A stretch of 26,813 bases of DNA from a virus (Duplodnaviria; Heunggongvirae; Uroviricota; Caudoviricetes): the IMG/VR virus record IMGVR_UViG_2537561933_000012, one strand, 5' to 3'. The translations under genes and the position numbers were made by a program. The notes beneath the pieces were generated by a model. That model was not told the origin of the DNA. It did not search any database and saw only the letters and a program-made list of their open reading frames with translations. The stretch's first letter is position 1, and every line of letters starts with the position of its first letter. Positions 5,547-26,813 of the stretch are shown here, one piece after another.

Positions 5547-6039
5547 TACTCCTCCCGCTGTAATTCCTCCTCATCATCCGCACCTGCTTCGGTCACCCGC
5601 AGGGCTATCTGATCGCGCAGATCATCAATAATGGACTGAACACGGCTCACAGCGGCAGGCTGCAGACCGCAGTCACGTTCAAGAATATCCGGTAATGTCT
5701 CCAGCCCTGCACGACCGCTTTTGCCCAGATGGCAAACTCTCGTCTGACATCACTGGCCGGAATGAGTTGTGCCGTTTCCTGTTCGAACTTAAGACGCTCA
5801 CGTTCAGACTGATACCAGGCTTTGCGCTCATGCGCGTCCATTTCGCCTTCTGCAACCGGCGGTGGTAATGCCAGAAATGCCGACACAATATCAACCACCC
5901 GATAAAGCTTGAGGTTGCTTTCATGCCCCCCTGCAACGGGTAGATTTTGCAGCCTTGCCGCAGCAGTCTGGCGATGTACACCTGACAGTGCCGCCAGTTG
6001 ACTGATATTCAGCGTCAGATTTTTTAACTCTCGATCCAT
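5546..6039 (-). pseudogene. Terminase small subunit (lambda Nu1-like), disrupted by a -1 frameshift near 5700-5712
   Basis: N-terminal 100 aa in the frame starting at 6039 (HTH-like LNISQLAALSGVHRQTAAARL); C-terminal ~60 aa (GLETLPDILERD...ADDEEELQREE) in another frame ending at the TAA that overlaps the large-subunit ATG. Confidence 0.6.
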
Positions 6040-6159
6040 ACCCGCTCCAGAATGTTTTAAACATGCATCTTGCGAACAACTTTAGGCAAACGGTGTTAGT
6101 GATGAACAAAAAACAATCAAAATCGACACCGCAAAAATAAAATCACTGTAATATCAATA

Positions 6160-6230
6160 CATTACAGTAGTGGTGATGACGAATGAAATTTCAAAAACTA
6201 GCCTTTTTCCGCGACGCTCCCGCCCCGTGG
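6160..6230 (-). other. cos site (cosN/cosB region) of lambda type
   Basis: Minus strand reads GGGGCGGGAGCGTCGCGG...GCTAGTTTTTGAAATTTCATTCGTCATCAC, resembling the recalled lambda left end GGGCGGCGACCTCGCGGG...TTCGTCATAAC; sits ~170 bp upstream of the terminase small subunit. Confidence 0.5.
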
Positions 6231-6488
6231 CAGGCCCCCCCACCGGAAGGACCCGCCAAAATGAGAGTGATTATCACCATTGCTGATGAATAAATTGATG
6301 AAAATCATTGAAACGCCTTTCAGCAAGATAACGGCGACGGTCGTTGTTGAACTCCGTAACTCTGCTACTAAGGTTAAAAGCATGGCCATCTTTTGCCACC
6401 GGCAAATCTTCAATGGATTTCCCCTGCCGGTTTTTTATTCCTCACATTATCGCAGCCCCTCAGTGAAGGGCTGCTGTAATGCCTGCTG

Positions 6489-6854
6489 TTACTCAGTAAC
6501 GACCGCGCCTTCCGGTAATTTCATACCGGCAAATACCGGCAGCCCGGGGATCGTTATCTGCAGCTGGTTAGCCAGGGAGTTAATCTCAGCGACCAACACT
6601 GGCTTCGTATAGCGCCATGCCGCCAGCCCTTGTCCACAGAAGCTCGCCATATCTTTTTTCTGATCAAACTCATGACACTTCATATTGAGCTGCGCACTTA
6701 AGCTGTTGCGATGCTGAAGTTCTCCGGTGAAGTAGTCATCCAGGACTTTATAGGCTGCATATTTAAATCCGGGGTTTAGCCATGCTGCATAATCATAAGC
6801 AACAAACTTCCCGCCATATGTTCCACCGTGTACACCGCGCTCAGTAAAAACCAC
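6489..6854 (-). CDS. Hypothetical phage protein between Rz and cos (position of ybcV/ydfO-type genes), 121 aa from a GTG start
   Basis: ORF with protein-like composition; family not recognised. Confidence 0.4.
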   Translation of the reverse strand: MVFTERGVHGGTYGGKFVAYDYAAWLNPGFKYAAYKVLDDYFTGELQHRNSLSAQLNMKCHEFDQKKDMASFCGQGLAAWRYTKPVLVAEINSLANQLQITIPGLPVFAGMKLPEGAVVTE

Positions 6855-6875
6855 AGATTCGTGTTTTTTCTCCAG

Positions 6876-7343
6876 CTACTTAATGCGCTGGGTGCGGATA
6901 TATTCCTGCGCCCCTTCCAGTTGCTTCTGCATCGTCATCAACCGTTCTCTGAGGGTGAAATAATCCCGTTCAGCGGTGTCTGCCAGTCGGGGGCTGGTTG
7001 CATTATCCATGCTGGTGGGTCCGGTGGCTTCACGCACGGCTGCGGAGCAACTGGCATTGACCCGCAGGCGCTTACGACCAGCGGCAACATCAGCGCGCAG
7101 AGTTTCATTTTCAGTTTTCGCATCGGCTAACTCCTTCGTGTATTTTGCATCGATCGCAGCAACATCACGCTGACGCTGCTGCATGTCAGCGATGGTGGCG
7201 GTCGCCTGCTTCAGCTCACTGACTTTTTTATCACGCTGTTCTTTGTAGGCGATGGCGTTATCACGGTAATGATTCAGCCCCAGACTAAGCACAACACAGG
7301 CCACCAGCAGCATAGCAATCACTACATACAGAACACGGTTCAT
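6876..7343 (-). CDS. i-spanin Rz
   Basis: Starts MNRVLYVVIAMLLVAC... with N-terminal TM segment; ...RLADTAERDYFTLRERL... as in lambda Rz; the track ORF begins at an upstream GTG, ATG at 7343 preferred. Confidence 0.85.
   Translation of the reverse strand: MNRVLYVVIAMLLVACVVLSLGLNHYRDNAIAYKEQRDKKVSELKQATATIADMQQRQRDVAAIDAKYTKELADAKTENETLRADVAAGRKRLRVNASCSAAVREATGPTSMDNATSPRLADTAERDYFTLRERLMTMQKQLEGAQEYIRTQRIK
6938..7123 (-). CDS. o-spanin Rz1 (lipoprotein), embedded in Rz in the +1 frame
   Basis: MRKLKMKLCALMLPLVVSAC lipobox, proline-rich PPDPPAWIMQP; fully nested within Rz. Confidence 0.85.
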   Translation of the reverse strand: MRKLKMKLCALMLPLVVSACGSMPVAPQPCVKPPDPPAWIMQPAPDWQTPLNGIISPSENG

Positions 7344-7344
7344 A

Positions 7345-7518
7345 TCACCACCAACGGATTGCCCAGACCAGAACAGCGACCGCCACAAGGCGAATTGCAA
7401 AGGCCGTTGCCCGAATAAAATCAGCACTCATCTGTTTAAATAAATTGTTGTGTATGCAACCAGTGCAGTACAAATAATCCATGCAACTGGCGTCAGTATA
7501 TGTCTGATGCCCCGGCAT
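7345..7518 (-). CDS. Small ORF, 57 aa, C-terminal hydrophobic segment
   Basis: MPGHQ...FIRATAFAIRLVAVAVLVWAIRWW, stop 2 nt before the Rz ATG; below the ORF-track size cutoff. Confidence 0.25.
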   Translation of the reverse strand: MPGHQTYTDASCMDYLYCTGCIHNNLFKQMSADFIRATAFAIRLVAVAVLVWAIRWW

Positions 7519-9229: not shown

Positions 9230-9254
9230 AAAAGAAAAGCCCGCAAAAGCGGGC
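9230..9254 (-). terminator. Terminator-like hairpin between tRNA array and holin
   Basis: GCCCGC-AAAA-GCGGGC stem-loop followed on the minus strand by TTTTCTTT. Confidence 0.3.
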
Positions 9255-9461: not shown

Positions 9462-9536
<75 letters not shown>

Positions 9537-9539
9537 ATA

Positions 9540-9615
<76 letters not shown>

Positions 9616-9617
9616 AC

Positions 9618-9694
9618 TGGACCGCCACCGGGGACTCGAACCTCGCACACTCAACTTAAAGAGTTGACGCTCTTTCCTGATGAGCTAGTGGCGG
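9618..9694 (-). tRNA. tRNA of uncertain identity (anticodon positions read UUU, Lys-like, but loop is UCUUUAA with C at position 33)
   Basis: Acceptor CCGCCAC/GTGGCGG, T-loop TTCGAGT, CCA encoded; non-canonical anticodon loop and one A-C mismatch in the T-stem. Confidence 0.5.
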
Positions 9695-9695
9695 T

Positions 9696-9771
9696 TGGTG
9701 GCCCTTGCTGGATTTGAACCAGCGACCTGGCGATTATGAGTCGCTCGCTCTCACCACTGAGCTAAAGGGCC
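9696..9771 (-). tRNA. tRNA-Ile2 (anticodon CAU, ileX/ileZ-like)
   Basis: GGCCCTTTAGCTCAGTGGT...CTCATAA...GGTTCAAATCC...AAGGGCCACCA, close to recalled E. coli ileX. Confidence 0.8.
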
Positions 9772-9780
9772 GGGCGCAGG

Positions 9781-9809
9781 ATAATAACGTTACGAAATCA
9801 ATGTTGCAA
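9781..9809 (-). promoter_or_regulatory. Sigma70-like promoter for the tRNA array
   Basis: On minus strand: -35 TTGCAA (9809-9804), 17 nt spacer, -10 TATTAT (9786-9781), ~10 nt before the tRNA-Ile 5' end. Confidence 0.5.
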
Positions 9810-9889
9810 GCATTCAAAAATCACCTGGTTAAAAATCACCCTTATCTCCTCCACCAGCGCATTCACCATGTCTATCCGAGATAAGTGAC

Positions 9890-9917
9890 ACAAAAAAACC
9901 CGCTTGATGCGGGTTTA
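9890..9917 (-). terminator. Rho-independent terminator (minus strand), possibly the tR-prime equivalent
   Basis: AAACCCGC-TTGAT-GCGGGTTT hairpin followed on the minus strand by a 7-T run. Confidence 0.6.
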
Positions 9918-9961
9918 AGTTGTGTGGCGAAGCGACCACTCTTAACAGATTAAGATAGTTT

Positions 9962-9991
9962 TTGCGTACGCGTTAGTGATTTTTTCATAAT
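9962..9991 (+). promoter_or_regulatory. Candidate promoter for the plus-strand cargo operon
   Basis: -35 TTGCGT (9962-9967), 18 nt spacer, -10 CATAAT (9986-9991). Confidence 0.3.
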
Positions 9992-10003
9992 TATCTGTAT
10001 CCT

Positions 10004-10915
10004 GTGGCTATTTCTCTTGCGCAAAGGATGCTTTTGATGACGCAGCAACTCGAAAACATGCCAATAACAGAAATCGAAATTGCCTACGGTGGAGAGGCAT
10101 ACGCAGATAATCAGATCGACGCGAAAACATTAGGCGAAGCCTTAACCTCTCTTAGTGCCCTGATTGAACACGCCGAAAAAATAATTAATGGCGAAACAGC
10201 AGAGCCGAAAGTCAACATCAAGGCAACAAAAGAAGGTTCATTTACTTTGCTTGTTGCTGTGATGGGGAGCATAAAAACTATTAACGCCCTTGGCCTCGTT
10301 GCAGGTGGTGGAGTTGCCGCAGGTGGCGTACTCGGGATAATCGAATGGCTCAAAGGGCGTAAAATCAGCTCCATTGTCGTCGATGAACAAAAAGATACAG
10401 CAGAAATCGAAGTGGATGGTGAGAAGGTTAAATGCAGTAACGACATTCAAAAATTAATAACCAGTCCAATCATCCGAAAAGAACTGGATAAATTAATCTA
10501 TAAACCCCTGCAGACTGAAAAACCATCCACGTTCTCAGTTTCACAGCAGAAGCATAAGGTAGTCAGGGTGACGCAAGCTGAAGCAGTAAGTTTTAAAACT
10601 GCAAAATCCACCTTTGTCGAGAAAACGCACGTAACGACACGCCAAGCTAATGTACATTTTGCTAATGTTCGATTCAAGCAAGGCAAAAGCTGGGATATCA
10701 TCCTGCCAAATGGCGAAGAAGTTAGCGCATCTATGAAAGATGAGGCTTTTCTTGAACGGGTTGAACACAACCAAGCAGCATTCTGTAAGGGTGATCTTTT
10801 TGTTGTAGAACTGACAGAAACAACAAAAGAAACAAATGGCGCGCTGTCTAAACCACGCTATAGTATTACTAAGGTTATACGCCACAGAGCGGCGGCAGAT
10901 AGGAAACTACTTTAA
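10004..10915 (+). CDS. Cargo operon gene 1: hypothetical protein with internal Gly-rich hydrophobic segment, up to 303 aa (true start uncertain: GTG 10004, ATG 10028/10037/10058)
   Basis: Long ORF; segment LLVAVMGSIKTINALGLVAGGGVAAGGVLGIIEWL looks membrane-associated; no family recognised. Confidence 0.6.
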   Translation: MAISLAQRMLLMTQQLENMPITEIEIAYGGEAYADNQIDAKTLGEALTSLSALIEHAEKIINGETAEPKVNIKATKEGSFTLLVAVMGSIKTINALGLVAGGGVAAGGVLGIIEWLKGRKISSIVVDEQKDTAEIEVDGEKVKCSNDIQKLITSPIIRKELDKLIYKPLQTEKPSTFSVSQQKHKVVRVTQAEAVSFKTAKSTFVEKTHVTTRQANVHFANVRFKQGKSWDIILPNGEEVSASMKDEAFLERVEHNQAAFCKGDLFVVELTETTKETNGALSKPRYSITKVIRHRAAADRKLL

Positions 10916-10918
10916 ATC

Positions 10919-11164
10919 ATGTCAATCCTAAGCATTATGCTTTACATCACTGTATTCATGGCTGTCGCAGCGACGGTCAGATATGCTGTGCTTAGGTTCT
11001 TGGTTTGGGTAAAGCCGAATGCGTATATTGAACTAACCTACACCGATCCTGAAGGCAGAACCGCTAAAAGGAAAGTCAGCGTTAGAAACGAAAATGACGC
11101 AGAAGAGTTGGCGCTACTGCTACGCGAACTCAAAACTCGCAACGAAGCAAGGGCAGGAAGGTGA
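10919..11164 (+). CDS. Cargo operon gene 2: small membrane protein, 81 aa
   Basis: N-terminal TM helix ILSIMLYITVFMAVAATVRYAVLRFLVWV then charged tail; starts 3 nt after gene 1 stop. Confidence 0.6.
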   Translation: MSILSIMLYITVFMAVAATVRYAVLRFLVWVKPNAYIELTYTDPEGRTAKRKVSVRNENDAEELALLLRELKTRNEARAGR

Positions 11165-11551
11165 ATGGCGAACACTAAATCCTACCTGGCAATGCAGGCA
11201 TGGTTTACCACCCTTATCACTGCGGGATTGAATTTCCTTTTTGACTGGCTTCCTCAATTAGCCTTCTTCAAATCATTGGCGCCTGGAGCTGCTGTCGGCT
11301 TATCTCATGTGGTAATTCTTCTTATCGCTTACATAGGTTTGCCTACGCTTAATGATGTAAGAATGAAAAGGGAAATAAAAACGGCCAGAAAATTCATCAC
11401 GAACTGCCTGGCCAACCCTAACCTAACACCAGACCAAATTGCGCACTACAACCAATGTCTTATCGATCTAGACAATAAGCTATTAAAAAACATAAATATT
11501 CGTATTGATGCTTTATCTGACGCCGAATCGAAAGCTCAAGCAAACGAGTAG
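11165..11551 (+). CDS. Cargo operon gene 3: membrane protein, 128 aa, two predicted TM helices
   Basis: Hydrophobic segments WFTTLITAGLNFLFDWL and AAVGLSHVVILLIAYIGLPTL; start abuts gene 2 stop. Confidence 0.6.
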   Translation: MANTKSYLAMQAWFTTLITAGLNFLFDWLPQLAFFKSLAPGAAVGLSHVVILLIAYIGLPTLNDVRMKREIKTARKFITNCLANPNLTPDQIAHYNQCLIDLDNKLLKNINIRIDALSDAESKAQANE

Positions 11552-11564
11552 TAACAGTCATAAC

Positions 11565-11921
11565 TTATGATAGAATCAAGCATATACATCCATCAATAAA
11601 GCCTAATGCAGTTTGCAGCTCCTTTCTTATAGTTCCATCTGAGCACCTGCGTTTCTTCGCGATTGAGCGTAGAGAAACACCAATAACAAAGTGAGCTATG
11701 AGCAGCTCATATTCCTCTGGTTTATACTTTCGCAACCGAGCCACACAACCGTCTATCATGATGCCTTCATCATCATCACACTGGAGACGTGACTTTTTGC
11801 CATGTGGCAAAAGCCTCTTGAAGCCCGCTGCTATCGGTTGCCAATCGACACCGCTATTTTCTGCTGCAGCCCATGCCCCCCAGCGATCTAAAACCTCATA
11901 CATATCACGCCCCATTACCAT
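11565..11921 (-). CDS. Late-gene antiterminator Q (QuuD/QuuQ-like)
   Basis: WGAWAA...IAAGFK...CDDD motifs as recalled for K-12 QuuD; position downstream of rusA. Confidence 0.6.
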   Translation of the reverse strand: MVMGRDMYEVLDRWGAWAAAENSGVDWQPIAAGFKRLLPHGKKSRLQCDDDEGIMIDGCVARLRKYKPEEYELLIAHFVIGVSLRSIAKKRRCSDGTIRKELQTALGFIDGCICLILS

Positions 11922-13713: not shown

Positions 13714-14835
13714 CTAGTGAATTTTGCCTCTAAGAGTTCGGTAAGATTGTAGTGAAACAACATCACCACTTCCTGGCAGTTCATGAACCGCAGGAAGATC
13801 ATCTCCTACTAACTCATAAAAAATGTCCACTTCTATATCCATTTCATCAGCTATACGCTGTGGGTCGTATCCTAACTCTTCAAATAAAAACGATAAAGCC
13901 CGACGGAATAACTCAGGACGCTCATGAGGGATTAGATAATCTTCTTTTTCATCAATAGCTTCCCCTTTCCGTTTCAACCCCATAAATGCAGTTCTGTACT
14001 GCTCATCAGTCAAAAGTCCTAATTGATGAGCCCTGTAAACAATGGCAGCCTTACTTACTTTCCATGTCAACTTAAATTGGCTTAGTCCCTGCCAATTTAT
14101 CCTCCCCCCCACAGGTCTTGGAAAATATTTCGCCATCGACGTTCTGGGAAGCAACAGAGCAGAGGCAAAACGGTTTGCCTGGGATTCAGTTAATCTATCC
14201 CCAGTAGAAATTCCTTCATGAAGAATCAAATGGGCAACCTCATGAGCAATATCAAAGCGTTGCCTACAAGGTGAATTTTTAGCTGTATTTCGAACAATAA
14301 AAGGCCTTCGTAGAGGAACAGACAGTGCATCTACTTCATCCGAAACGGAGTCAAATGAAGTAACAAACGCCCCAAGTTTCTCGGCAAGGCGAGTCATATT
14401 TTCAATTGGGCCAAAGCCTAAGCCCCACTCAATACGACATTTTTCTGCCGCTCGCTCGATATCTTCTTGTGTATGGACACGAAATTCAGGAAATCGAACA
14501 GGTGACAAATTAAGGTTATCTTCAAATACATCAATAAAACGACGATAAAACTCAGCCTTAGCGAGTGTTGATAGCTTCGTTGACATCCTTGTCGAGGCGC
14601 GTTTACGAAAATGTACAATCTCTTCATTAACAGGAGAATGTTCCTGCCCTTCGAAAAAGGCGGGCTTCACGCGCAAAACCTCGGCTAATTTATTTATAAG
14701 CTCTGGGGATGGAGTAGCTGAACCAGACTCCAGTCGCTGTACATACTGGCGTGTTTTTTCAACCTTCTCAGCAACCTGCTCCAGAGATAGCTCGTGATAC
14801 AGACGAGCAAGTCTTAAATTAGTACCGTTAAACAC
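13714..14835 (-). CDS. XRE-family HTH fused to ImmA/IrrE-type (M78-like) zinc metallopeptidase domain, 373 aa, GTG start
   Basis: N-terminal HTH (LSLEQVAEKVEKTRQYVQRLESG); HEXXH motif HEVAHLILH; GGGTGA Shine-Dalgarno-like sequence before the start. Confidence 0.75.
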   Translation of the reverse strand: MFNGTNLRLARLYHELSLEQVAEKVEKTRQYVQRLESGSATPSPELINKLAEVLRVKPAFFEGQEHSPVNEEIVHFRKRASTRMSTKLSTLAKAEFYRRFIDVFEDNLNLSPVRFPEFRVHTQEDIERAAEKCRIEWGLGFGPIENMTRLAEKLGAFVTSFDSVSDEVDALSVPLRRPFIVRNTAKNSPCRQRFDIAHEVAHLILHEGISTGDRLTESQANRFASALLLPRTSMAKYFPRPVGGRINWQGLSQFKLTWKVSKAAIVYRAHQLGLLTDEQYRTAFMGLKRKGEAIDEKEDYLIPHERPELFRRALSFLFEELGYDPQRIADEMDIEVDIFYELVGDDLPAVHELPGSGDVVSLQSYRTLRGKIH

Positions 14836-14845
14836 ATTTCACCCA

Positions 14846-15439
14846 CTATTTGCTATTTTGTTTCTTTTCCTTCTCAGTCTTAGACGCACTGATAGGTTCT
14901 AGTTCGATAGGTACCGGTGCTGGAGGTACATCATCGACAGAGTTCAGCATAACAACACGGTCCGCACCATATGTCCAAGTTGACACGATCTCACCAAACA
15001 CGTTATAGCCATTAAAAATGACTCTACCCCCCTCGCCTTCAAATTCAGGCTTTTCAACCACAAAGCGATGCATAGTTGGAGTAGTCTCCTCTGACTCAAA
15101 GAGTCGATCAGCATCATTTCTTTTGAAAAAACCGCGTTTCTTGGGGTTATCTGCGTCATCAGTAAAGAAACGAATAGGGACATTCCCAATTGAAAACGTA
15201 AGATCCATGCCAGGATTAAGTAGTCTTAACCAGTCATATGTCTTTCGTACGCACATTTGTAGCAACGCCTGCCGCTGACGCCCAAATGTACAACCACCAC
15301 GAGTGTAATTATCATCATAGGGCGATGACAATAACTCATGAGTAATATCCTGTATCCTGAGCAACTCCTCAGCTATAATGGTTAAACGCACCTCTGTTAA
15401 CTCAGGAAAGAACTCCCAAGGGAATGGATGGTTCTGCAT
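14846..15439 (-). CDS. Hypothetical protein, ~197 aa, upstream partner of the HTH-peptidase gene (candidate effector)
   Basis: ORF ending 10 nt before the HTH-peptidase start; ATG at 15439 with GGAG about 10 nt upstream; no family recognised. Confidence 0.55.
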   Translation of the reverse strand: MQNHPFPWEFFPELTEVRLTIIAEELLRIQDITHELLSSPYDDNYTRGGCTFGRQRQALLQMCVRKTYDWLRLLNPGMDLTFSIGNVPIRFFTDDADNPKKRGFFKRNDADRLFESEETTPTMHRFVVEKPEFEGEGGRVIFNGYNVFGEIVSTWTYGADRVVMLNSVDDVPPAPVPIELEPISASKTEKEKKQNSK

Positions 15440-15520
15440 AGACACTTCTCCGCCTAATCCGTGCAAAAAACGACTTTTGTCAACCAAGATATTGGTGCAT
15501 ATTCATAATTTTGTCAACCA

Positions 15521-15889: not shown

Positions 15890-16936
15890 TTACCATATGG
15901 AGTTGTGAATGAACTTTAATTCATTTTTTATTTTGTTAACAGATAAATTCACGGATGTCCTAACTCTATTCACAGTCATTGCATCTCCTGGATTTAACAA
16001 CTCTAATGGTTTAGACTTAGCACTTGACATTCTGCCACTACCCAGAAAATCATCAAGAATCACAATGTGATTATTAGGATCATCTGTTGTAAAATTACTA
16101 ATATTTTGTCGAATTACCTCTCTTACAGCTTCGATGTACATTTTTGTCTGTTGATTTGGTTTATTCCTTGCTCCTGCCACTGTTGACCATCCGCAATGGG
16201 TAATAACCACCATCTGAATTTTTGGTGTATGGCCATCAGACGGCATTATCTTTCTAAATTCTGATGTTGGTTTAGTCAGAGTATCAATAAGTAATCTTAA
16301 TGAATTAATCGATTGCTGATCTGTCCTCACTGGAACTATTAAAGCATCTGTTGCATGCCAAGATAAATGCGTCGCTCCAGAGAAAAAAGGTGATGTATCA
16401 ATTAACGCTTTTGTAGTACCAGTTTCAACCATTTCTCTGGCTATTTCTTTCTTCAGAGAAAAAAGAATTGTATCAATAACAACCTGCTGAGTAGCCCCAG
16501 AAATTGTTCTGGCTTGAGCCAGAGCATTCGCCATTTGCGTAGGTAGAAGATAAAGTTGACTATCAGATTGAATAAAATAGTTATTCTTGCCCGCAAACCA
16601 AGCATTAGTTGATGATACTAGCTTTGCAGCACGCGTTGCAAATCCAAGCCCTGGAACAAAATAAGGCATTAAGAGGTCATTTGCAGTTGTGCTAGACGAA
16701 GATGCATAATTATTGTCAAAAAAATATGATAAATTTCCTTGCGGGCACGTATCCACGATTAATGCGTTATCCGCCAAATATGACAGATTAAAAGTTAAAG
16801 ATGTCTTACCAATGCCTCCCCGTAAATTACATACTGTATATTTATCATATTTCGGCAAATTAAGACTTCTTACATTACCGTCAGCAACTTCGAATTGACG
16901 CTCTATCAGAGCATTAACATTTGATTCACTAGTCAT
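15890..16936 (-). CDS. ParA/MinD-like P-loop ATPase (deviant Walker A), 348 aa, in an AT-rich island
   Basis: Walker A-like NLRGGIGKTS near the N-terminus; GGTGG Shine-Dalgarno-like sequence before the ATG; flanking DNA conspicuously AT-rich. Confidence 0.65.
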   Translation of the reverse strand: MTSESNVNALIERQFEVADGNVRSLNLPKYDKYTVCNLRGGIGKTSLTFNLSYLADNALIVDTCPQGNLSYFFDNNYASSSSTTANDLLMPYFVPGLGFATRAAKLVSSTNAWFAGKNNYFIQSDSQLYLLPTQMANALAQARTISGATQQVVIDTILFSLKKEIAREMVETGTTKALIDTSPFFSGATHLSWHATDALIVPVRTDQQSINSLRLLIDTLTKPTSEFRKIMPSDGHTPKIQMVVITHCGWSTVAGARNKPNQQTKMYIEAVREVIRQNISNFTTDDPNNHIVILDDFLGSGRMSSAKSKPLELLNPGDAMTVNRVRTSVNLSVNKIKNELKFIHNSIW

Positions 16937-22939: not shown

Positions 22940-25174
22940 ATGCAGGAAAACCGCTGGGATGAGGAGTCTGCTTCCTTTGTCCCGGTTGAGACTGAATCAG
23001 ATCCGATGAACGTCACTTTTGACAAGCTGACCCCTGAAGTACAGAACGCTGTCATGGTTAAGTTCGACACATGTGAAAACATCACCGTTGATATGGTGAT
23101 TAGCGCGCAGGAATTGTTGCAGGAAGACATGGCAACATTCGACGGACATATCGTTGAAGCGTTGATGAAAATGCCAGAAGTTAACGCCATGTATCCAGAA
23201 CTTAAGTTGCATGCCATCGGGTGGGTTAAGCATAAATGTAAGCCTGGAGCTAAATGGCCCGAAATTCAGGCAGAGATGCGCATCTGGAAAAAACGTCGCG
23301 AAGGTGAACGCAAGGAAACCGGAAAATACACGTCTGCTGTTGATCTCGCCCGCGCCAGAGTCAACCGACAGCACACTGAAAATTCAACAGGAAAAATCAA
23401 CCCGGTCATTGCTGCCATTCATCGCGAATACAAGCAGACATGGAAAACACTGGATGACGAACTGGCCTACGCTCTCTGGCCTGGTGATGTGGATGCCGGA
23501 AACATTGACGGCAGCATCCATCGCTGGGCAAAAAATGAAGTTATCGACAACGACCGCGAAGACTGGAAGCGTATCTCGGCATCGATGCGCAAACAGCCTG
23601 ATGCCCTTCGCTACGACCGCCAGACTATTTTTGGCCTTGTCCGTGAACGTCCGATCGACATTCACAAAGATCCTGTGGCACTGAACAAATACATTACTGA
23701 ATACCTGACTACAAAGGGCGTGTTTGAAGATGAAGGAACAAATCAGAGCGCAACTGATACTCTCTCGTCGCCAGTACCAGAAACTGATGCAGTGGAAACG
23801 GCAATTCCAGACAACGAAAAAACCGAATGCAAAGTGGAAGTCGAACCATCTGTAGAACGTGAGGGGCCGTTCTACTTCCTCTTCACCGACAAGGATGGCG
23901 AAAAATACGGTCGCGCAAATAAACTTTCTGGTCTGGATAAGGCGCTGTCTGCTGGGGCTACTGAAATCACGAAAGAAGAATATTTCGCCCGCAAAAACGG
24001 TACATACTCAGGTTCACAACAAAATACTGGTGCATCTGACACGACCGCACAACCAGGGTCAGTAAAAGTTACCGCTGACGAAGTAAACAAAATTATGCAG
24101 GCAGCCAATATCAGCCAGCCTGACGCCGATGAACTGCTTGCAGTATCACGTGGTGAATTTGTTGAAGGGATTAGCGACCCGAATGATCCGAAATGGATTA
24201 AGGGGATCCAGACCCGCGATTCTGTGAACCAGAACCAGCAAGAAACGGAACAGAACGACCAGAAAGCGGAACAAAACAGCCCAAATACGCAACAAAACGA
24301 GCCAGAAACGAAACAACCTGAACCAGTAGTGCAACAGGAACCGGAAAAGATCTGCACCGCCTGCGGTCAGAGCGGTGGCGGCAACTGCCCTGATTGTGGT
24401 GCGGTGATGGGTGACGCAACATACCAGGAAATATTCGATGGAGAGAATCAGCCTGAAGTTCAGGAAAATGATCCGGAGGAAATGGAAGGCACTGCGCATC
24501 AGCACAAGGAGAACACTGGCGGCAATCAGCATCATGCCAGCGATAGTGAAACTGGCGAGGCGTCAGATCCCTTAATTAAGGCAAACGGTCATCATAATCT
24601 CACATCCACCAGCAGAGCGGGGATTCATCTGATGATCGACCTTGAAACCATGGGAAAAAATCCCGATGCCCCGATTATCTCAATAGGTGCAATATTTTTC
24701 GATCCGCAAACCGGAGATATGGGACCGGAATTTAGTAAGACTATCGATCTGGAAACTGCTGGCGGAGTCATTGATCGGGACACCATTAAATGGTGGCTTA
24801 AACAATCACGCGAAGCGCAATCTGCCATTATGACCGATGAAATCCCGTTAGATGATGCACTGTTACAATTGCGGGAATTTATCGACGAAAACTCCGGTGA
24901 ATTTTTTGTTCATGTCTGGGGAAATGGAGCCAACTTCGACAACACGATTTTGCGCCGTTCATACGAACGGCAGGGGATCCCCTGCCCGTGGCGTTACTAC
25001 AACGATCGCGATGTACGCACAATCGTTGAGCTGGGGAAAGCCATAGACTTCGATGCCAGAACGGCTATTCCATTCGAAGGTGAGCGCCATAATGCACTTG
25101 ATGACGCCCGTTACCAGGCAAAATACGTTTCAGCTATCTGGCAAAAACTGATCCCGAGTCAGGCTGATTCTTAA
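22940..25174 (+). CDS. Large recombination-module protein with C-terminal DEDDh 3'-5' exonuclease domain, 744 aa from ATG 22940 (possibly longer)
   Basis: C-terminal MIDLETMG (Exo I), FDNTILRR, HNALDDA (Exo III) motifs; CTACGQSGGGNCPDCG zinc-ribbon-like; Q/E-rich linker; frame open upstream to 22709. Confidence 0.7.
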   Translation: MQENRWDEESASFVPVETESDPMNVTFDKLTPEVQNAVMVKFDTCENITVDMVISAQELLQEDMATFDGHIVEALMKMPEVNAMYPELKLHAIGWVKHKCKPGAKWPEIQAEMRIWKKRREGERKETGKYTSAVDLARARVNRQHTENSTGKINPVIAAIHREYKQTWKTLDDELAYALWPGDVDAGNIDGSIHRWAKNEVIDNDREDWKRISASMRKQPDALRYDRQTIFGLVRERPIDIHKDPVALNKYITEYLTTKGVFEDEGTNQSATDTLSSPVPETDAVETAIPDNEKTECKVEVEPSVEREGPFYFLFTDKDGEKYGRANKLSGLDKALSAGATEITKEEYFARKNGTYSGSQQNTGASDTTAQPGSVKVTADEVNKIMQAANISQPDADELLAVSRGEFVEGISDPNDPKWIKGIQTRDSVNQNQQETEQNDQKAEQNSPNTQQNEPETKQPEPVVQQEPEKICTACGQSGGGNCPDCGAVMGDATYQEIFDGENQPEVQENDPEEMEGTAHQHKENTGGNQHHASDSETGEASDPLIKANGHHNLTSTSRAGIHLMIDLETMGKNPDAPIISIGAIFFDPQTGDMGPEFSKTIDLETAGGVIDRDTIKWWLKQSREAQSAIMTDEIPLDDALLQLREFIDENSGEFFVHVWGNGANFDNTILRRSYERQGIPCPWRYYNDRDVRTIVELGKAIDFDARTAIPFEGERHNALDDARYQAKYVSAIWQKLIPSQADS

Positions 25175-25498: not shown

Positions 25499-25532
25499 CT
25501 AAAAGCCACACTAACTAATGAGAGAAGTTGAA

Positions 25533-26813
25533 ATGAAATATCCGACAGGCGTGGAAAACCATGGAGGGAAATTACGTATCTGGTTTGTTTATAAAGGCGT
25601 AAGAGTCAGGGAAAATCTGGGGGTTCCTGACACAGCAAAAAACAGGCGCGTTGCAGGTGAACTACGCTCCTCTGTTTGTTACGCAATAAAAACTGGTGTT
25701 TTCGACTATGCAAAACAGTTTCCCTCCTCACGCAATCTGGAAAAATTTGGTGAGGCCCGACAAGATTTAACCATAAAAGAACTGGCTGAAAAATTTCTGG
25801 CACTGAAAGAAACTGAAGTCGCCAAAACATCACTCAACACATACCGTGCCGTCATCAAAAATATCCTGAGCATAATCGGTGAAAAAAATCTTGCCTCATC
25901 GATTAATAAAGAAAAATTACTGGAGGTTCGTAAAGAGCTACTGACTGGATACCAGATCCCCAAAAGTAACTATATTGTTACACAACCAGGGAGATCGGCT
26001 GTAACTGTAAATAATTACATGACAAATCTTAACGCCGTGTTCCAGTTTGGTGTTGATAACGGTTACCTGGCAGATAACCCGTTTAAGGGGATCTCGCCAT
26101 TAAAGGAATCAAGAACCATTCCGGATCCTCTTTCGCGGGAGGAATTCATCCGTCTTATCGATGCGTGCAGAAATCAGCAAGCCAAAAATTTATGGTGTGT
26201 TTCTGTTTATACTGGCGTTCGCCCTGGTGAGCTGTGTGCACTTGGATGGGAGGACATAGATCTGAAAAATGGAACAATGATGATCAGGAGAAATTTAGCA
26301 AAAGACCGTTTCACGGTCCCAAAAACACAGGCGGGAACCAATCGGGTCATTCATCTTATTAAGCCAGCAATCGACGCTCTCCGGAGTCAGATGACATTAA
26401 CGAGACTGAGCAAAGAGCATATCATTGATGTTCACCTCAGAGAGTATGGCAGAACAGAAAAACATAAATGCACCTTTGTTTTTCAACCTGAAGTGTCAGC
26501 GAGAGTAAAAAATTATGGTGACCATTTTACCGTTGACTCAATAAGGCAGATGTGGGACGCAGCGATAAAACGTGCCGGACTCCGCCATCGAAAATCATAT
26601 CAGTCGAGACATACTTATGCCTGCTGGTCGCTGACAGCTGGTGCTAACCCGGCATTTATAGCAAACCAGATGGGCCATGCAGATGCGCAAATGGTATTTC
26701 AGGTATACGGAAAATGGATGTCTGAAAACAATAATGCACAGGTAGCTTTGTTAAATACACAGTTAAGCGAGTTTGCCCCAACCATGCCCCATAACGAAGC
26801 AATGAAAAATTAA
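25533..26813 (+). CDS. int: Tyrosine site-specific integrase (lambda Int family), 426 aa from the ATG at 25533
   Basis: C-terminal catalytic region ...SRHTYACWSLTAGANPAFIANQMGHADAQMVFQVYGKW with His and terminal Tyr; GAGAGAAG Shine-Dalgarno before 25533 (track start 25518). Confidence 0.85.
   Translation: MKYPTGVENHGGKLRIWFVYKGVRVRENLGVPDTAKNRRVAGELRSSVCYAIKTGVFDYAKQFPSSRNLEKFGEARQDLTIKELAEKFLALKETEVAKTSLNTYRAVIKNILSIIGEKNLASSINKEKLLEVRKELLTGYQIPKSNYIVTQPGRSAVTVNNYMTNLNAVFQFGVDNGYLADNPFKGISPLKESRTIPDPLSREEFIRLIDACRNQQAKNLWCVSVYTGVRPGELCALGWEDIDLKNGTMMIRRNLAKDRFTVPKTQAGTNRVIHLIKPAIDALRSQMTLTRLSKEHIIDVHLREYGRTEKHKCTFVFQPEVSARVKNYGDHFTVDSIRQMWDAAIKRAGLRHRKSYQSRHTYACWSLTAGANPAFIANQMGHADAQMVFQVYGKWMSENNNAQVALLNTQLSEFAPTMPHNEAMKN

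Follow-up and report, generated by a model that had tools for sequence, protein, structure and literature searches.

The window analyzed here, the whole 26,813-nucleotide (nt) stretch of virus DNA (Caudoviricetes) in IMG/VR record IMGVR_UViG_2537561933_000012, holds a prophage of the lambdoid type with its early-right and late genes on the minus strand. Between the gene for the Q antiterminator and the tRNA and lysis genes it carries a plus-strand cassette of three genes, which we call A, B and C. We consider it likely that this cassette is a prophage-borne anti-phage defense, related to the gp29-gp30 system of Mycobacterium phage MichelleMyBell but proteobacterial and made up of three genes. 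This role is suggested by the homology of A to gp29, by the conserved membrane partners that accompany A, and by the accessory and lysogeny-module positions taken by relatives of the cassette. The cassette is not categorically new, being a three-gene variant of gp29-gp30 and a member of the untested PDC-S42 family; among defense families, a gp29-like trio would be one more beside hundreds. An earlier note, made from the letters of the window alone, had suggested a superinfection-exclusion or abortive-infection module. Its suggestion gains support at the sequence level from the homology to gp29, the role reported for that relative, the indel nature of the cassette and its mobility.

Protein A and its membrane partners

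The three genes of the cassette are:

10037..10915, plus strand: gene A, 292 amino acids (aa), gp29 / PDC-S42 / 'LAPAL' family
10919..11164, plus strand: gene B, 81 aa, an N-terminal transmembrane (TM) helix and a short charged C-terminal domain, predicted cytoplasmic
11165..11551, plus strand: gene C, 128 aa, two TM helices followed by two long helices, predicted cytoplasmic

A profile of the A family aligned with MichelleMyBell gp29 (310 aa) over 270 of about 300 columns, with an hhalign probability of 98.9% and an E value of 3e-17. Identity between the two proteins is about 21%, and the profile alignment identifies A as a full-length remote homologue of gp29. PADLOC family PDC-S42 matches both proteins, gp29 with an E value of 1.6e-16 and A, over nearly its whole length, with an E value of 3e-53. 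All 44 diverse members of the A family that were tested match the same PDC-S42 model. Protein A also scored 225 bits against NCBIfam model NF053583, which has a cut-off of 60. The earlier note had recognized none of the three proteins, a statement that these matches overturn for A, and the PADLOC scan that it proposed succeeded for this protein. An exhaustive profile search with the A family recovered 2,917 cluster representatives at an E value of 0.001 or better, and among the matches listed nearly all are 280-320 aa long and align end to end. A Pfam scan of A gave no match. The N-terminus of DUF7946 resembled some distant A homologues weakly, below threshold and uninformatively. Kinship of A with Abi_alpha, considered because of a neighboring gene and a vague motif likeness, was rejected (probability 0.1%).

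In the GenBank record of a Vibrio integrative element, a homologue of A bears the label 'MMB_gp29_gp30__gp29', which we take to be the DefenseFinder profile name for gp29. Three separate database entries, DefenseFinder MMB_gp29_gp30, PADLOC PDC-S42 and NCBIfam LAPAL, are thus joined. DefenseFinder matches to gp29-gp30 have been reported in Actinobacteria only (bioRxiv 10.1101/2023.03.30.534874), so the link of this system to PDC-S42 and to enterobacterial prophages appears to be absent from current tools. The PDC families are 145 untested candidates, genes found embedded in BREX, DISARM or type I restriction-modification loci (bioRxiv 10.1101/2024.01.29.577857). Searches of the literature and of the PADLOC-embedding and DefensePredictor supplements found no mention of PDC-S42, 'LAPAL motif', DUF7946 or the RefSeq accessions; a name for the cassette may nonetheless have been published.

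What is reported of gp29-gp30 describes a prophage-encoded defense of cluster N mycobacteriophages. According to papers that cite the original study, gp29 is toxic, gp30 is a putative membrane protein, and the pair defends against lytic phages by an unknown mechanism (PMC11856565). The phenotype is said to be that of a typical abortive infection, in which adsorption and injection still go ahead (PMC6426606), and phage Tweety is reported to plate four to five orders of magnitude less well, an effect that Tweety gp54 counters (PMC8549241). A homologue in an Escherichia coli lambdoid prophage brings a system that has been studied only in Mycobacterium, and that has no known mechanism, into the most tractable genetics.

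The likeness between cassette and relative extends to gene order. Proteins of 292 and 310 aa, each matching PDC-S42, are followed by a gene for a small membrane protein with overlapping or abutting codons, and both systems lie in a temperate-phage accessory region adjoining lysis genes. In MichelleMyBell the partner is gp30, a 67-aa protein with two hydrophobic helices whose gene overlaps the end of gene 29, whereas the cassette has B with one TM helix and C with two, followed by about 70 cytoplasmic residues. The hosts also differ, gp29-gp30 being reported from Actinobacteria and the cassette occurring in Gammaproteobacteria. No homologue of gp30 was found immediately downstream of A, the slot being taken by the two other small membrane proteins. 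Judged by these comparisons, the two architectures are analogous in their partners, not homologous. PADLOC treats PDC-S42 as a single-gene candidate, whereas its gammaproteobacterial members head a conserved operon of three genes. Current models miss two obligatory-looking membrane partners.

Read from its GTG start, the longest open reading frame (ORF) of A (10004..10915, plus strand) would encode 303 aa. The ribosome-binding site AAAGGA (10023-10028) precedes ATG 10037, which is also the RefSeq start, and positions 10020-10039 are kept in the Citrobacter and Plesiomonas copies whereas GTG 10004 is not. Because of the ribosome-binding site, the RefSeq start and this three-genus conservation, the true start is almost certainly ATG 10037, giving 292 aa. 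For the large protein of about 300 aa described earlier, the start belongs further downstream.

Hydropathy places a Gly-rich hydrophobic stretch at residues 69-105 of A, one TM helix in B and two in C, in agreement with the earlier reading. The stretch in A contains a GxxxGxxxG pattern. The AlphaFold model of A (mean pLDDT 77, pTM 0.67) runs from a strand and a long helix through a Gly-rich hairpin, which is poorly predicted, to a beta-rich middle domain and an OB-like barrel. The 'LAPAL' motif sits on the long N-terminal helix and reads LGEAL here and LAPAL in distant members. Fold searches with this model returned weak matches, OB/S1-like ones to the C-terminal barrel and proteasomal ATPase tandem-OB domains, and revealed no recognizable enzyme or pore fold. 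Probably, protein A is not integral to the membrane but soluble or peripheral.

Proteins B and C match phrog_27630 (E 8e-56) and phrog_26468 (E 7e-89), respectively, and gave no match in Pfam or NCBIfam. The AlphaFold model of C has four helices, two in the membrane and two long ones following, in agreement with hydropathy. By the positive-inside rule, the C-terminal domains of both proteins are predicted to face the cytoplasm, within reach of A. The architecture of B recurs beside A homologues in Orbaceae, Serratia, Pasteurellaceae, Vibrio and Pseudomonas; gene B carries no annotation in the RefSeq records that were examined. Membership of B and C in holin, antiholin or spanin families is not indicated, given the absence of a Pfam match and a strand opposite to the holin, lysozyme and spanin block. 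Alignment of C homologues shows an invariant Ser47-His48 placed in the second TM helix. The sole hhalign pairing of C with gp30, which is not significant (0.4%), sets C residues 43-50 (AVGLSHVV) against gp30 residues 53-60 (VIGVTHLV). Both stretches lie in the second membrane helix, and each has Ser or Thr followed by His.

Families of PHROG match A, B and C end to end (E about 1e-56 to 1e-94), and ratios of nonsynonymous to synonymous substitution rates (dN/dS) against Citrobacter and Plesiomonas orthologues are 0.035-0.10 across the three genes (0.065 for B and 0.08-0.10 for C), with dS of 0.95-1.6. Because of these matches and low ratios, A, B and C can be regarded as genuine genes under strong purifying selection and not as chance ORFs.

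Positions of the trio and its behavior as an indel

The trio persists down to 23-29% identity of A, always with abutting or overlapping codons. One partner has about 80-90 aa and a single TM helix; the other, about 125-160 aa long, has two helices ahead of a helical tail. The locations recovered for the trio, for A alone and for gp29-gp30 are:

Citrobacter prophages: trio between Q and the downstream terminator
Orbaceae and Gilliamella Mu-like prophages: trio (A 46-47% identical) directly upstream of the lysis genes and co-oriented with them
Serratia element: trio, with P4-like primase genes
Second E. coli lineage (loci L007-L010, about 6001-7507): trio in the nin region, between hokD and DUF968
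Plesiomonas prophage: trio directly after cI, co-oriented
Avibacterium and metagenomic prophage: trio (A 23-25% identical) directly after a cI-type repressor gene, co-oriented
Pseudomonas megaplasmids: trio
Vibrio Vinavirales (non-tailed) element: trio
Chromosomal islet: trio (A 29% identical) between HicAB and PIN-PhD pairs
Lactobacillus phage A2: A alone, between endolysin and integrase
Listeria phage vB_LmoS_188: A alone, inside the lysogeny operon, next to a 'putative superinfection immunity protein' gene
MichelleMyBell: gp29-gp30 between lysis genes and integrase

All of these are accessory or lysogeny-module sites, and the distribution indicates that the three genes travel together as one unit among accessory sites on temperate phages, on satellites and on plasmids. 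Such a spread over tailed phages, a non-tailed element, satellites and plasmids is expected of a defense cassette. The moron-type placement first proposed is borne out by these several sites, among them the position after cI, which is the rexAB slot of lambda and is occupied by the trio in three lineages. The trio is also found away from the Q-lysis site and is missing from near-identical prophages, so that fixed conservation at that site, which the earlier note had named as evidence against its idea, was not observed. In the second E. coli lineage the trio is co-oriented with early transcription, and its A is 52%, its B 45% and its C only 24% identical to the proteins of the window; by this comparison C diverges much faster than A. 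Because the Gram-positive phages and one distant 'LAPAL' member carry A without B and C partners, A appears as the core of the family, with partners that differ by lineage (gp30 in mycobacteriophages, B and C in Gammaproteobacteria).

The rexAB position invites comparison with RexAB-type systems (lambda RexA-RexB, Sbash gp30-31, CarolAnn gp44-43 and P. putida RexAB). These likewise combine a soluble protein of about 280-370 aa with one or more membrane proteins and are prophage-encoded, and relatives of the cassette lie in the same slot, downstream of cI and co-oriented with it. The cassette has three genes, not two. Homology of the A family to RexA (a RexA-like, DUF4747-type component) was rejected at a probability of 0.1%, as was homology of C to RexB (E 1.6). 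RexB has four membrane helices, whereas B has one and C two. Four are also present in CarolAnn gp43 and Sbash gp31 (PMC6426606). Membrane damage and aborted infection have been described for Rex-type systems (PMC6426606, PMC12894663), and the same outcome is proposed for the cassette.

With the nmpC/lc porin genes, stx and other accessory genes of the Q-lysis interval, the cassette shares the hotspot, the reverse orientation, the self-contained organization, a lower GC content and a presence/absence pattern. It differs in that the proteins are unrelated and in that relatives occur after cI, in the nin region and on plasmids. Its GC content of 43.1% is modestly below that of Q (45.9%), the lysis genes (49.6%), DUF968 (54.1%) and RusA (55.1%), in keeping with the AT-richness remarked upon earlier.

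Within complete E. coli genomes the cassette occupies this position in 37 of 5,426. Comparison of the junctions delimits it as a discrete 1.57-kb indel with direct repeats of 10-11 bp at both ends, and three elements at its margins are pertinent:

9917..9994, plus strand: conserved 78-bp segment, likely promoter/operator region, kept in Citrobacter and Plesiomonas (~71%)
9985..9994: left direct repeat TCATAATTAT, read from the sequence
11558..11568: right direct repeat TCATAACTTAT, overlapping the Q stop codon, read from the sequence

Fourteen E. coli genomes keep only the first 78 bp of the query (window positions 9917-9994) at 91% identity and have no cassette; in the three of these that were listed, a Q-family gene ends where the segment is found. 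Detailed examination of one strain, MS20657, showed that the last ~60 nt of its Q are identical to the window and that a single copy of the repeat stands at the cassette-less junction. In this strain 7 nt separate the Q stop from the 78-bp segment, after which comes the terminator of the window with a different loop. The Q-holin interval of MS20657 (L033, 1059-2345) holds genes for a scabin-related ADP-ribosyltransferase and a subtilase-family AB5 binding subunit.

The 78 bp, together with the next 42 bp, are kept (~71%) upstream of A in Plesiomonas, where synonymous sites are saturated. Since the segment is retained next to cI in that prophage despite such saturation, it probably belongs to the cassette, as a promoter or operator region. 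For this reason a deletion between the repeats is a more likely origin of the cassette-less arrangement than an empty site. The discrete insertion anticipated by the earlier note therefore holds as a discrete indel with repeats that is absent from prophages with the same kind of Q, and insertion and deletion are not separable. A second, independent deletion, internal to the cassette, occurred in E. coli TUM9757 (locus L025, 3180-3400), whose otherwise isogenic prophage lacks A, B and most of C. Its endpoints are two copies of GATGCTTT, at 10027-10034 and 11507-11514, and the product joins the cassette leader to the last ~40 nt of C. Because the prophage is otherwise isogenic, this deletion indicates that the cassette is dispensable for prophage maintenance.

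Proposed defense by the cassette and competing explanations

How might such a cassette act? We tentatively propose the following membrane mechanism. A lysogen would express the operon from its own conserved 120-bp leader. Proteins B and C, anchored in the inner membrane, would extend their C-terminal domains into the cytoplasm and there bind or restrain a cytoplasmic or peripheral A. A product of the incoming phage would be sensed, for which the two OB-like beta-barrel domains of A are the best candidates. The complex would then damage or depolarize the membrane, by means of the glycine-zipper hairpin of A, a B-C channel or the two together, and the infected cell would no longer support phage growth, that is, infection would be abortive. 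By analogy, A may be the toxic component; the sole hint is the second-hand statement that gp29 is toxic. In favor of defense we also count that the cassette is a discrete and dispensable indel, that its genes are under strong purifying selection, and that a RosmerTA system resides in the same prophage. It is unlikely that a fuller scheme holds in its entirety, in which the gp29-like protein would attack the membrane via its glycine-zipper hairpin, gated by B and C, with an antisense self-immunity switch and an anti-Q RNA holding late genes off, all within a distinct and widespread family (~2,900 clusters).

Several observations weigh against a defense role of this kind. Comparison of C with gp30 by hhalign detected no similarity (probability 0.4%), and B was likewise without similarity to gp30. 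The PADLOC scan that recovered A left B and C without a matching model. The phenotype of gp29-gp30 is known to us second-hand, from papers that cite the original study. Neither a cassette promoter nor the phage late promoter could be placed with confidence by promoter scan and conservation. The name of NF053583 is 'LAPAL motif-containing putative phage structural protein'. Finally, the GxxxGxxxG hairpin is a property of enterobacterial A members, the same region being charged and not hydrophobic in distant homologues, so membrane insertion by A is perhaps not general.

Other functions can be envisioned for these genes. As two small proteins of the inner membrane, B and C look like typical exclusion proteins, and with the aid of A they might block DNA injection, a superinfection exclusion at entry that leaves the infected cell alive. 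The lysogeny-module positions and the Listeria phage neighbor annotated for superinfection immunity would fit. However, the MichelleMyBell system is described as acting after adsorption and injection (PMC6426606) and gp29 as toxic (PMC11856565), and Gram-positive phages carry A without a membrane partner, which makes A the core; blocking at entry is therefore quite unlikely. Slightly more doubtful again is an addiction or toxin-antidote module that stabilizes a mobile element, with A as toxin and B and C as antidote or the reverse, and with no primary anti-phage role. Such a module would account for the presence of the trio on plasmids, prophages and satellites, for neighbors such as hok, HicAB and PIN-PhD, for the toxicity reported for gp29 (PMC11856565), and for the TUM9757 deletion, which took out A, B and most of C at once. 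Yet the closest studied relative is reported to give a strong phage-specific defense phenotype (PMC8549241), and the cassette is cleanly lost from similar prophages. Note that many toxin-antitoxin modules defend anyway, so that addiction and anti-phage defense overlap.

The interval in which the cassette lies harbors many non-defense genes in lambdoid phages, such as porins and toxins, and the AB5-type toxin pair of MS20657 is located there. With membrane proteins of unknown function in B and C, a lysogenic-conversion role in envelope stress tolerance or in immunity to bacteriocins or contact-dependent inhibition comes to mind. We regard this as very improbable, since A is homologous to a studied defense protein and its family was independently recovered as genes in defense loci. 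A structural or lysis-accessory function, to which the NCBIfam name would point, as would the trio of the Orbaceae and Gilliamella Mu-like prophages, placed directly upstream of the lysis cassette in the same orientation, is hardly credible and is largely refuted by context. The cassette of the window is antisense to the late operon and is missing from near-identical prophages. Relatives lie beside cI, in the nin region, on megaplasmids, in a toxin-antitoxin islet and in the non-tailed Vibrio element, and no match to a holin, endolysin or spanin family was found. The 'structural protein' name given by NCBIfam is thus probably wrong.

Transcriptional context and neighboring features

On the minus strand the gene order is DUF968, RusA, Q, four tRNAs, a P21-type holin, DUF1327 and lysozyme. 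The plus-strand ORFs 10004/10037-10915, 10919-11164 and 11165-11551 lie between Q and the tRNA/lysis block, with the following flanking elements:

9462-9771, minus-strand flank: four tRNA genes, on the Q-distal side of the cassette
9896..9916, minus strand: strong intrinsic terminator (AAACCCGCATCAAGCGGGTTT then T-run), abutting the left end of the cassette leader, from the terminator scan
11565..11921, minus strand: Q antiterminator (PF06530, E 1e-44), context outside the cassette and convergent with it

The ORF list confirms the tightly packed operon originally described, with 3 nt between the stop of A and the start of B and 0 nt between the TGA stop of B and the ATG start of C. Convergence with Q was equally evident. 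The stops of C and Q are 13 nt apart in every E. coli and Citrobacter copy examined, and a terminator scan of this 13-nt interval revealed no terminator-like site, again as noted before. Given these 13 bp and no terminator between the convergent genes, read-through in both directions would be expected. In the lysogen, cassette transcripts might run past the gap into an anti-Q RNA, and early or late phage transcripts would run antisense through the cassette up to the terminator at 9916-9896. At induction, its own lytic transcription could in this way let the resident phage turn the cassette off. Since neither promoter has been located with confidence, this regulatory part is conjecture. Whether a prophage can govern a potentially suicidal system through the direction of transcription is a question that the convergent layout makes testable.

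The candidate promoter proposed by the earlier note, TTGCGT (9962-9967) and CATAAT (9986-9991) with an 18-nt spacer, failed a consensus scan, its -35 hexamer having only 3/6 matches. At its 3' end, the Q gene has a candidate late promoter (TTGATG, 18-nt spacer, TATCAT; 11596-11567) that recurs unchanged in MS20657 but is not conserved in Citrobacter; neither this nor the following candidate could be established. A promoter-like site on the minus strand (TTGCAA, 17-nt spacer, TATTAT; 9781-9809) lies directly upstream of the tRNA cluster, and a second terminator-like hairpin (9239-9254) is found between the tRNAs and the holin; either could be part of a late promoter/terminator pair. The window contains four copies of the 9-mer AAAAATCAC, where chance would give 0.5. 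Of these, three fall within 170 bp and bracket the terminator at 9896-9916, with two direct copies on one side (9816-9824 and 9831-9839, plus strand) and one inverted copy on the other (9976-9984, minus strand). These copies may be regulator sites, perhaps for Q. A 36-aa 'antiterminator' ORF of RefSeq (WP_086259018.1; 9829-9939, minus strand) spans the terminator hairpin and its translation is not Q-like; it looks like a spurious call.

The tRNA gene at 9696-9771 was assigned to Met (anticodon CAT) by ARAGORN, and RefSeq calls the identical gene tRNA-Ile, of the lysidine-modified CAT type. RosmerTA, a known defense system, is complete in the nin region of the prophage (13714-15487, minus strand), with RmrA (HTH and M78 peptidase, 373 aa; E 4e-201) and RmrT (213 aa; E 7e-92). 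It adjoins a gene for a ParA/MinD-like ATPase of 348 aa (15890-16936) that has no defense assignment. In the related prophage L001, the region equivalent to RosmerTA contains hypothetical genes, hokD and queH. The 744-aa product of an ORF at 22940-25174, just upstream of the integrase gene (25518-26813), ends in an Rv2179c-like 3'-5' exoribonuclease domain (E 9e-67), preceded by ~560 N-terminal residues without a family match.

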